64,000 bases of DNA, from the sequence record PV659873.1, one strand, 5' to 3'. A model generated the notes under the pieces. The model did not search any database. It saw nothing but the letters and a program-made list of their open reading frames with translations, and was not told where the DNA came from. Made by a program: the position numbers and the translations under genes. The stretch is from Escherichia phage WPEC1. Positions 25,520-27,517 of this stretch are shown here, piece by piece. Positions within the stretch are counted from its first letter, which is position 1, and the number at the start of each line of letters is the position of its first letter.

Positions 25520-27517
25520 TCCCTCTCCTCTCTTGGGGCTTTGCCCCTCCTCCTTGTTATTTTTAACACCCCTCTCCGAAAGGTTAGGGGCTTTTTTGCA
25601 ATAAGACTCATCAGCATCGTAGAAAGGAGAGATGCGACTTAAGTCAAGACCTTCTTGTAAGAACCAGTTAAAATCTAATAAGACTCATCAGCATCGTAGA
25701 AAGGAGAGATGCGACTTAAGTCAAGACCTTCTTGTAAGAACCAGTTAAAATCTCGTTTTATGAATCTCCCCTAAATACTTTTCTAAGATTTTACGACCCT
25801 CGTCGATAAGGGCTTGTTCTGTAGTAATTTCCATAAGACTCATCAGCATCGTAGAAAGGAGAGATGCGACTTAAGTCAAGACCTTCTTGTAAGAACCAGT
25901 TAAAATCTCCGTCAAATTCTTCTTCAATTCTAGGGTCTTCTCCTACAGCCTCTTCCCATTTATTAAAAGGTGCACCCTGTAACATCCGTCAAATTCTTCT
26001 TCAATTCTAGGGTCTTCTCCTACAGCCTCTTCCCATTTATTAAAAGGTGCACCCTGTAACATACGTCAAATTCTTCTTCAATTCTAGGGTCTTCTCCTAC
26101 AGCCTCTTCCCATTTATTAAAAGGTGCACCCTGTAACATACGTCAGCTTGTTAATCATTGGTGATAAATAGCGTTTACCAACGTAAAACAGCACGCCAAC
26201 TGATGCAACGGCGGCGATCTCATGTAAGGAGGAAGGTCGCGCGGTGTCATAGTAGGTACCTATAATAGCAATAGCGGCAACGGCGGCAATATGATCTCAT
26301 GTAAGGAGGAAGGTCGCGCGGTGTCATAGTAGGTACCTATAATAGCAATAGCGGCAACGGCGGCAATATCTGTTTGAGCCTTAGATCTGTAACCTTCGGG
26401 TAGTGCATTCAGTGTTTTACCAGATATCGGTTGTAAGCTTGCCGCTTCAATAGAGCCTTAGATCTGTAACCTTCGGGTAGTGCATTCAGTGTTTTACCAG
26501 ATATCGGTTGTAAGCTTGCCGCTTCAATAGTAAATGGTTCATATTCTACACTACTTTCTAAGTTAGCAATAACTGAACCAACGGCCTCTTTGTAGACTCG
26601 TCTACAAAACTATATGAGTATTTAACATACGAAGAGTATGTTGAAGCCATGTATGTGAAAGACACTTCAATAAAGAGAAAACATCAAAACCAGACAAATA
26701 AAATGTCAGATTTGTTTAAGAAGCCATGTATGTGAAAGACACTTCAATAAAGAGAAAACATCAAAACCAGACAAATAAAATGTCAGATTTGTTTAAGAAA
26801 CTTGTTTAATCTTTCCTTCATAATCCTGAATTCTATCTAGCACCCATTGTATACGATGTTTGTTTTTATGGCAAATATGTTTTTTATGTTTCTGTCAAAT
26901 TCTTCTTCAATTCTAGGGTCTTCTCCTACAGCCTCTTCCCATTTATTAAAAGGTGCACCCTGTAACATATTTGTCAAATTCTTCTTCAATTCTAGGGTCT
27001 TCTCCTACAGCCTCTTCCCATTTATTAAAAGGTGCACCCTGTAACATAAATAAGACTCATCAGCATCGTAGAAAGGAGAGATGCGACTTAAGTCAAGACC
27101 TTCTTGTAAGAACCAGTTAAAATTTTCCAAATCAAAGAAAGGAGGCTCATCTTTCCAAATGTGACGCTCAACTTCAACACCATGATCAACTACCAGAGTA
27201 GCGGTCCCTCTCCTCTCTTGGGGCTTTGCCCCTCCTCCTTGTTATTTTTAACACCCCTCTCCGAAAGGTTAGGGGCTTTTTTCTTTTTTGTCAAATTCTT
27301 CTTCAATTCTAGGGTCTTCTCCTACAGCCTCTTCCCATTTATTAAAAGGTGCACCCTGTAACATACTATGTTACAGGGTGCACCTTTTAATAAATGGGAA
27401 GAGGCTGTAGGAGAAGACCCTAGAATTGAAGAAGAATTTGACGAACTACTCTGGTAGTTGATCATGGTGTTGAAGTTGAGCGTCACATTTGGAAAGATGA
27501 GCCTCCTTTCTTTGATT
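25520..27517. repeat. repeat island 4
   Basis: About 25 consecutive ~75-85 bp modules; tandem copies at 25598/25677, 25910/25986/26062, 26215/26290, 26370/26453, 26640/26721, 26889/26969; interrupted inverted repeat centred near 27366. Confidence 0.85.
25569..25597 (+). terminator. rho-independent terminator inside the 5-copy module T
   Basis: cccctctcc-gaaa-ggttagggg plus TTTTTT; same module at about 27206 and 48824 (forward) and 13096, 31216 (inverted). Confidence 0.5.

Follow-up and report, generated by a model that had tools for sequence, protein, structure and literature searches.

The stretch of DNA analysed here (the window) comprises 64,000 nucleotides from Escherichia phage WPEC1 (PV659873.1). 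It was compared by BLAST with 50,697 phage records, among which its own source record is not found, and this comparison identifies it as part of a phAPEC8-like E. coli myovirus (Phapecoctavirus). In general terms, the window consists of eight large blocks that match the genome of phage ESCO5, in mixed order and orientation, with an island at each of the seven joins; all 7,752 repeated bases of the window fall in these seven islands. The subject of this work is the fourth of them, island 4, which joins the block carrying the tRNA cluster to a block that is native about 77 kb away. It contains (i) tandem arrays of a short module, termed block B; (ii) pieces of several other origins; and (iii) an interrupted palindrome of about 390 bp that runs into the homolog of ESCO5 gp158. 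The origin of each piece was set by mapping to the complete ESCO5 genome, and the coordinates are collected in Table 1.

Table 1. Large blocks and islands of the window, composition of island 4, and double-length arrays. Islands lie exactly between blocks; positions are those of the window unless headed ESCO5.
Feature	Window position	Strand	ESCO5 position	Remarks
Block 1	1-9570	+	47617-57709	
Island 1	9493-10284			
Block 2	10207-13024	-	47110-44293	
Island 2	12947-13403			
Block 3	13327-22758	-	68224-58793	
Island 3	22686-24687			
Block 4	24457-25597	+	57635-58786	
Island 4	25520-27520			
Block 5	27446-29827	+	135120-137501	
Island 5	29748-31678			
Block 6	31601-35126	-	71750-68226	
Island 6	35046-35509			
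Block 7	35493-48823	-	129637-116286	
Island 7	48747-49359			
Block 8	49292-64000	+	373-14213	
Island 4: last 78 nt of block 4	25520-25597	+	58709-58786	terminator-like, downstream of a 98-aa gene
Island 4: block A, two copies	25600-25753	+	33930-34006	exact 77-nt tandem duplication; within gp087 homolog
Island 4: piece of about 79 nt	25755-25832	+	25204-25283	5' end of ESCO5 gp070 homolog
Island 4: block A, then block B in three copies	25833-26140	+		A, 25833-25908; B, 25909-26140; from sequence reading and repeat searches
Island 4: 232-nt stretch	26141-26373	+		native to WPEC-type phages; exact 77-nt duplication 26216-26292/26293-26369
Island 4: pieces around the minor head protein break site	26374-26605	-	68151-68305	77-nt duplication 26376-26452/26453-26529
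Island 4: pieces from between tail chaperone and tape-measure genes	26606-26811	+	71751-71879	77-nt duplication 26643-26719/26720-26796
Island 4: 79-nt block	26812-26890	+	no match	other copies at 9571-9649, 9950-10029, 13252-13326, 23532-23608
Island 4: block B, two copies	26891-27048	+		79-nt spacing; filler bases ATTT
Island 4: block A after B	27049-27125	+		native A/B order reversed
Island 4: outer left palindrome arm	27127-27201	-		reverse complement of first 75 nt of block 5 (gp158-homolog codons 11-35)
Island 4: second copy of block 4 end	27205-27282	+		identical to 25520-25597; interrupts outer palindrome
Island 4: inner left palindrome arm	27290-27364	+		block B core; from repeat search
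Island 4: inner right palindrome arm	27368-27442	+		reverse complement of block B; residues 9-33 of gp087 homolog (MLQGAPFNKWEEAVGEDPRIEEEFD)
Downstream gene, ESCO5 gp158 homolog	27445-27753	+		block 5 genuinely begins with the outer right arm, 27446-27520 (75 nt)
TRF array, period 158-160	29980-30290			two alternative arms in succession
TRF array, period 158-160	35123-35432			two alternative arms in succession
TRF array, period 158-160	48973-49283			two alternative arms in succession

Block B has a 75-nt core (GTCAAATTC...CCCTGTAACAT) that starts at 25911, 25988 and 26065 in the triple array (delimited by TRF at 25910-26145, with period 77, 3.1 copies and 99% identity), at 26894 and 26973 in the double one (period 79), and once more at 27290, where it is followed by its own reverse complement at 27368-27442. 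There are nine copies of it in the 64-kb window, which does not contain the body of the gene from which it comes. A repeat search delimits the inner palindrome arms at 27287-27365 and 27367-27445 (79 nt, 99% complementary, 1 nt apart) and the outer inverted pair at 27127-27201 and 27446-27520 (75 nt, 100% complementary). The folding energy of 27120-27525 as DNA is -194.6 kcal/mol, versus -41.1 +/- 4.2 in shuffled sequences, and since this amounts to z = -36.6, chance can be excluded as the origin of the palindrome. The initial annotation had described the module as occurring in three, two and one copies together with a nested palindrome, and this description is borne out, with coordinates displaced by 1-4 nt; it had overlooked that the blocks of island 4 all belong to a single length class (77-80 nt) and that the six other islands of the window draw on the same pool of blocks.

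The constancy of this length extends to the whole window. When the window was scanned exhaustively for units of 25-399 nt that are duplicated exactly and immediately, 13 junctions were found, all of them with a unit of 77 nt and six of them in island 4. Likewise, TRF reports 12 arrays with a period of exactly 77 and an identity of 98-100%. Maximal runs of repeated 77-mers (n = 105) measure 77 nt in 57 cases, 78 nt in 33, 79 nt in seven, 80 nt in six, and 82 and 84 nt in one case each, the last being the longest. No 77-nt duplication was found in the ESCO5 genome (149 kb), and exact duplications of at least 25 nt were absent from nine out of ten independent 6-kb loci, the tenth having only a single-character run. 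For reads of about 150 nt, SPAdes uses 77 as its largest k by default. A repeat unit equal to a fixed assembler word size for sequences unrelated to each other is a property of de Bruijn artefacts, and it is the one found here. Unrelated sequences share one repeat length and are repeated with 100% identity; this is the mark of software rather than of biology.

Piece by piece, island 4 begins with genuine sequence (25520-25597), from which point the native genome order is left, and it is made up of about 25 pieces, each of 77-82 nt or doubles thereof. The two copies of block A at 25600-25753 are a k = 77 overlap left unmerged. As for the triple of block B, it reads exactly ...CC + core, CC + core + AC, core + AC + GTCAGC..., that is, exactly as three overlapping graph edges whose 77-nt overlaps were written out unmerged. 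Many other joins are blunt and bring together unrelated pieces with 0-5 filler bases; the gp070-homolog piece, for instance, is bluntly joined to block A at both ends. The stretch at 26141-26373 is shared by the sibling phage WPEC2, including its 77-nt duplication, and is absent from the 10-kb loci fetched from WPEC4 and WPEC6. Finally, the interrupted palindrome (about 390 bp) amounts to four graph pieces of about 77 nt that precede the initial 75 nt of block 5. Simple concatenation of edges that overlap accounts for all 13 duplication junctions as well as for the block B triple, but not for the blunt joins, and is, in consequence, only part of the explanation. Concatenation of a FASTG file, in which each edge is accompanied by its reverse complement, was considered as the source of the palindromes and rejected, given that no large block has its reverse complement after it. 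A MITE-like element or a cassette for promoter or stem-loop shuffling was also rejected: the blocks are slices of single-copy ESCO5 sequence, their copies are 100% identical and their length is fixed at k.

The coding content of the palindrome arms is of interest because the initial annotation took the right arm to be in frame with the downstream gene and to encode its probable N-terminus. This holds for the frame of the outer right arm (27446-27520), which is in-frame coding sequence of the gp158 homolog; nevertheless, it corresponds to codons 11-35 instead of the N-terminus, and the inner right arm is out of frame. The ATG at 27368 opens a reading frame, different from that of the downstream gene, that stops after 29 codons (the stop being codon 30). 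This inner arm comes from the gp087 homolog, whose native locus lies about 100 kb away in the reference and of which the window contains only fragments (aa 8-62, in 11 pieces). Regarding the gp158 homolog, its residues 12-112 are 100% identical to those of WPEC4, codon 11 is altered, and the start codon and residues 1-10 are missing; its true 5' block is found three times at 22994-23225, in another island. The proposal that the palindrome duplicates the 5' end of a gene in inverted orientation must then be abandoned, as the inner arm derives from the gp087 homolog and the true start of the gp158 homolog is missing here. A single 5' region of this gene with no inverted partner is what every other assembly of the gp158-homolog locus contains.

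Other conserved genes are affected as well: (i) the minor head protein is split into two parts 21.7 kb apart (aa 1-41 at 13449-13327 and aa 43-138 at 35123-34836); (ii) the ATPase covers residues 1-368 of 379, so that 11 residues are missing, and its aa 343-379 are found inverted at 31141-31031; and (iii) the homolog of the exonuclease gp104 is cut after residue 72. With conserved genes cut or split in this manner, a plaque-forming phage with such a layout is not plausible.

Despite its disorder, part of the window can be put back into the order of the reference. The last 75 nt of block 1 are the first 75 nt of block 4, which is its true neighbour in ESCO5, and blocks 1, 4, 3 (reverse complement) and 6 (reverse complement) re-tile ESCO5 from 47.6 to 71.8 kb. 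With the block boundaries as set by the analyst, ten out of 14 internal block ends recur two to five times within the islands. Repeated pieces that coincide with block ends, together with blocks that re-tile into reference order, are again what a de Bruijn artefact leaves behind. The islands also hold a duplicated tRNA-Gln and dozens of tiny ORFs.

Comparison with Phapecoctavirus references (phAPEC8, ESCO5; Stephanstirmvirinae) reveals both likeness and difference. On the one hand, the large blocks of the window are 94-99% identical to ESCO5, and the tRNA cluster, the terminase and the tail genes are present. On the other hand, the reference genomes are collinear, measure 148-152 kb and have no islands, while the WPEC records measure 155-159 kb and have 351-367 annotated CDS versus 273 in ESCO5. 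Over 100 relatives (148-152 kb) share 98-99% identity with the window, and all of them match only from 27446. From this point on, the window is 100% identical to WPEC4, WPEC2 and WPEC6 (over 27446-29800), whose records (155-159 kb) correspond to phages from Thai hospital wastewater with EC3.18 as common host. A search of the literature on the WPEC phages or their host strain found nothing relevant.

The gene whose end lies at window position 27753 has 112 aa in WPEC2, WPEC4, WPEC6 and ESCO5, where it starts 31 nt upstream of the point that corresponds to 27446; no island lies upstream of this intact gene in any of the four, and ordinary genes precede it. A public collection lists the identical 83-aa neighbour of this gene (27753-28004) in 394 blocks, and the ten places shown belong to NCBI genomes, ENA metagenomes or Logan assemblies made from raw SRA runs. 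At these ten independent loci, the upstream gene has 112 aa (107 in one, due to a different start call), the ATPase has 378-379 aa, and no island is present, ordinary genes being found upstream. Island 4 itself occurs in no phage record searched, the best match being WPEC6, with 42% coverage in eight scattered pieces. Two island-specific chimeric ORFs are not on record among 153 billion gene positions, which is a weak negative, and in IMG/VR the palindrome centre had no match, just as a native junction used as positive control had none. In any case, absence from independent assemblies of the same or nearly identical genomes, another feature of de Bruijn artefacts, is documented by these loci.

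The siblings do have islands of the same kind elsewhere. In WPEC6, 31 tiny CDS lie in a stretch of 5.9 kb or more, where the same blocks appear in another order and the only duplications are of 77 nt; the WPEC6 palindrome of block B with the reverse complement has the centre GTAACA/TGTTAC, versus GTAACATACTATGTTAC in the window, and also differs in location. That the siblings are 100% identical in their genes and yet differ in their islands fits an arbitrary traversal of a graph and not inheritance.

These data bear on the possibility that the structure is real, with amplified mobile or recombinogenic modules of about 77 nt and a genuine nested palindrome, perhaps a regulatory or replication element. 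Such a reading could invoke the perfection of the repeats, far beyond chance, their position between gene blocks, and the similar islands in three sibling GenBank records from the same laboratory. Against it, the modules are slices of genes or intergenic regions that are ordinary and single-copy in more than 100 relatives; their length equals an assembler parameter; essential genes are split; and siblings that are 100% identical vary in island content and order while keeping the locus intact. Its probability is practically negligible.

The palindrome raises a difficulty of its own. Long palindromes and cruciforms of E. coli and its phages that are sensitive to SbcCD have been studied in lambda, and in wild-type E. 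coli, perfect palindromes much longer than 100 bp undergo cleavage by SbcCD and fail to propagate. Because of this cleavage, a lytic coliphage should not keep a palindrome such as the one described here, and the unease already voiced over its stability in vivo pointed in the right direction. The window sequence resembles genuine cruciforms in that it could fold on paper (arms of about 79 nt, 1 nt apart, nested in 75-nt arms). But genuine ones are selected against in sbcCD+ hosts, whereas the one in the window is composed of two unrelated gene fragments plus a copy of a terminator, is found in no relative and, in a sibling record, has another centre. A natural long palindrome or cruciform was rejected on the grounds of its absence from more than 100 relatives and from 100%-identical siblings, and of the different centre and location in WPEC6. 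Nor is a natural palindrome compatible with intact flanking genes, as the downstream gene lacks its start and ten codons and the arms come from two other loci.

The double-length pieces point to how the graph may have been broken. Double blocks of 152-155 nt (2k+1 would be 155) recur two to three times in the window, and their copies differ only by central single substitutions 2-6 nt apart, with about 75 identical nt to the left and to the right. Six sites were checked: in five of them, the reference allele is found in one of the copies, and in the other (135118), neither of the window copies has it. It is exactly at this variable zone of the double blocks that the large blocks come to an end. 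This arrangement resembles the SNP bubbles of de Bruijn graphs, in which arms of 2k+1 lie between shared k-mers: the lengths, the central substitutions and the identical flanks of about 75-77 nt are alike. Unlike usual bubbles, which assemblers normally collapse, the alternative arms are here written consecutively and there are several alleles per site.

The breakage may be due to errors that recur when coverage is very deep, to a mixed lysate or to real heterogeneity. The break sites (among them ESCO5-equivalent positions 34004-34007, 58787-58793, 68222-68226, 116283-116287 and 135114-135118) carry several substitution alleles, and no shared motif (restriction or Dam site, adapter-like sequence) was seen at them by eye. 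It is highly improbable that the roughly one dozen break sites, with two to three or more coexisting alleles, are hot spots of real heterogeneity in the phage population, in which case some fold-back molecules might exist in the DNA preparation. If that heterogeneity were real, it might correspond, for example, to targeted escape mutations or to site-specific damage or nicks, and the islands would be the garbled readout of a site-specific process.

Another explanation places the palindrome in the reads, though not in the phage. Chimeras formed during library preparation (by fold-back or template switching, through enzymatic fragmentation or amplification), among them the fold-back junction of block B with its reverse complement, could become visible at very deep coverage and be faithfully assembled. 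This would account for blunt joins of unrelated pieces beyond unmerged overlaps, and the several substitution alleles at break sites are those that recurrent high-depth errors would give. The pieces, nevertheless, have limits at both ends, 77-82 nt apart, which a chemical chimera would not give: at a real junction there is a single breakpoint and not a pair of them separated by k. Furthermore, the centre of block B and its reverse complement differs between the window and WPEC6, and the two chimeric ORFs looked up appear in no public assembly, including those made by Logan from raw runs. Library chimeras are, for these reasons, very unlikely.

Island 4, with its palindrome, is very probably an artefact of building the record from short reads through a graph with k = 77. 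The window is a chain of contig-like blocks whose joins are filled by pieces of 77-82 nt or of about 152-158 nt, and these filler pieces are either block ends or arms, resembling those of bubbles, from a de Bruijn graph in which k = 77. The perfect 77-nt tandem duplications arise because some neighbouring pieces were written with their 77-nt overlap unmerged, and the palindrome because others were merely placed side by side, in some cases next to their own reverse complement. The assembler was probably SPAdes or a similar program with a top k of 77, and the graph may have been tangled by unresolved variant or error bubbles, possibly at very deep coverage or in a mixed lysate. Most likely, the sequence of the real phage before 27446 is that of its 100%-identical siblings: the gp159 homolog, ...GGAGGTAATATGTTTAGTAAAGAAATGAGAGAGGTGATCG, then CTACTCTGG..., with no repeats and no palindrome.

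There is a precedent for an artefact of this type. In phage Tokugawa, assembled from short reads with Shovill/SPAdes, an internal repeat of 79 bp turned out to be an artefact according to a hybrid long- and short-read workflow, and in most of the phages of that study, similar repeats proved to be artefacts when checked by Sanger sequencing (PMC10438801). The likeness lies in a perfect repeat, with the length of an assembler word, in a phage assembly made from short reads only; the Tokugawa repeat disappeared on long-read and Sanger verification (PMC10438801). But while that case concerns a single repeat, the window contains dozens of pieces in seven islands, misordered and misoriented blocks, and inverted joins that form palindromes.

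The main value of the finding is one of data hygiene. The same kind of islands is present in the records of WPEC2 (PV691511), WPEC4 (PV682947) and WPEC6 (PV763039), to which they add about 4-10 kb and about 80-90 spurious hypothetical proteins; such proteins can enter protein databases, pangenomes, and scans for repeats or defence systems. An automatic screen could flag records with many exact tandem duplications that share one length equal to a common assembler k. As far as the phage itself is concerned, none of the features of these islands (palindrome, tandem modules, duplicated tRNA-Gln, tiny ORFs) should be taken as phage biology.

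Besides island 4, which is almost certainly a short-read assembly artefact, six further islands are present in the window (see the table), and all of them draw on the pool of 77-80-nt blocks that also makes up island 4. Each one exactly separates two large blocks which are out of order with respect to the reference phage ESCO5 (NC_047776.2). The other features noted on islands 1-7 should receive the same verdict of artefact.

Three tRNA-Gln(ttg) calls are found in the window versus one in ESCO5. Since the tandem pair coincides with a 77-nt duplication (24533-24687), the third, shorter copy lies inside island 5, and ESCO5 has a single gene, the surplus copies are artefacts too.

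The double blocks (152-155-nt bubble-like arms) come in two to three alleles at every break site, with single substitutions spaced 2-6 nt, and five different dinucleotides occur among the left contexts of block B, a module with a 75-nt core that is repeated in the window. No common motif was seen across the break sites of the window. Candidate causes of these alleles are: (i) deep-coverage errors; (ii) a mixed lysate; and (iii) real hot spots.

Islands, tRNA-Gln calls, break-site alleles and island-type sequence in sibling records
Feature	Record	Position	Remark
Six islands besides island 4	window	9493-10284, 12947-13403, 22686-24687, 29748-31678, 35046-35509, 48747-49359	
tRNA-Gln(ttg), copy 1	window	24544-24616	tandem
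tRNA-Gln(ttg), copy 2	window	24621-24696	tandem
tRNA-Gln(ttg), copy 3	window	30543-30610	minus strand
Alleles, group 1	window	9796-9800, 24378-24382, 25906-25910	
Alleles, group 2	window	13096-13103, 31214-31221, 48894-48902	
Alleles, group 3	window	35198-35205, 35356-35360	
Alleles, group 4	window	48900-49210	
Island-type sequence	WPEC2, PV691511	324-477	of fetched locus
Island-type sequence	WPEC6, PV763039	141868-147768	1-5901 of fetched locus

Islands of this kind also occur in the public records of the sibling phages WPEC2 and WPEC6, the latter with 31 tiny "hypothetical protein" CDS within 5.9 kb. Island 4 matches WPEC4 (38863-39867) at low identity in several pieces, which suggests the same kind of islands there. 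The WPEC records list 351-367 CDS versus 273 in ESCO5, and their genome length is 155-159 kb versus about 150 kb. The GenBank entries of WPEC2, WPEC4 and WPEC6 are probably misassembled.

ESCO5 itself carries a single exact 55-nt tandem duplication (145412-145521), in a region where 34-47-nt repeats form a natural family (near 141078, 142607, 145433 and 145488). As 55 is another common SPAdes k, the duplication may be either genuine or a minor artefact. In PP129558.1 (Escherichia phage vB_EcoM_01), titled "complete genome", about 400 identical characters, probably Ns at an assembly gap, lie downstream of the ATPase gene (about 5326-5722 of the fetched locus).

Within the large blocks, ESCO5 matches are absent or weak at 38790-39772, 49896-51077 and 57768-58252; these stretches look like ordinary mosaic gene differences among Phapecoctavirus genomes.
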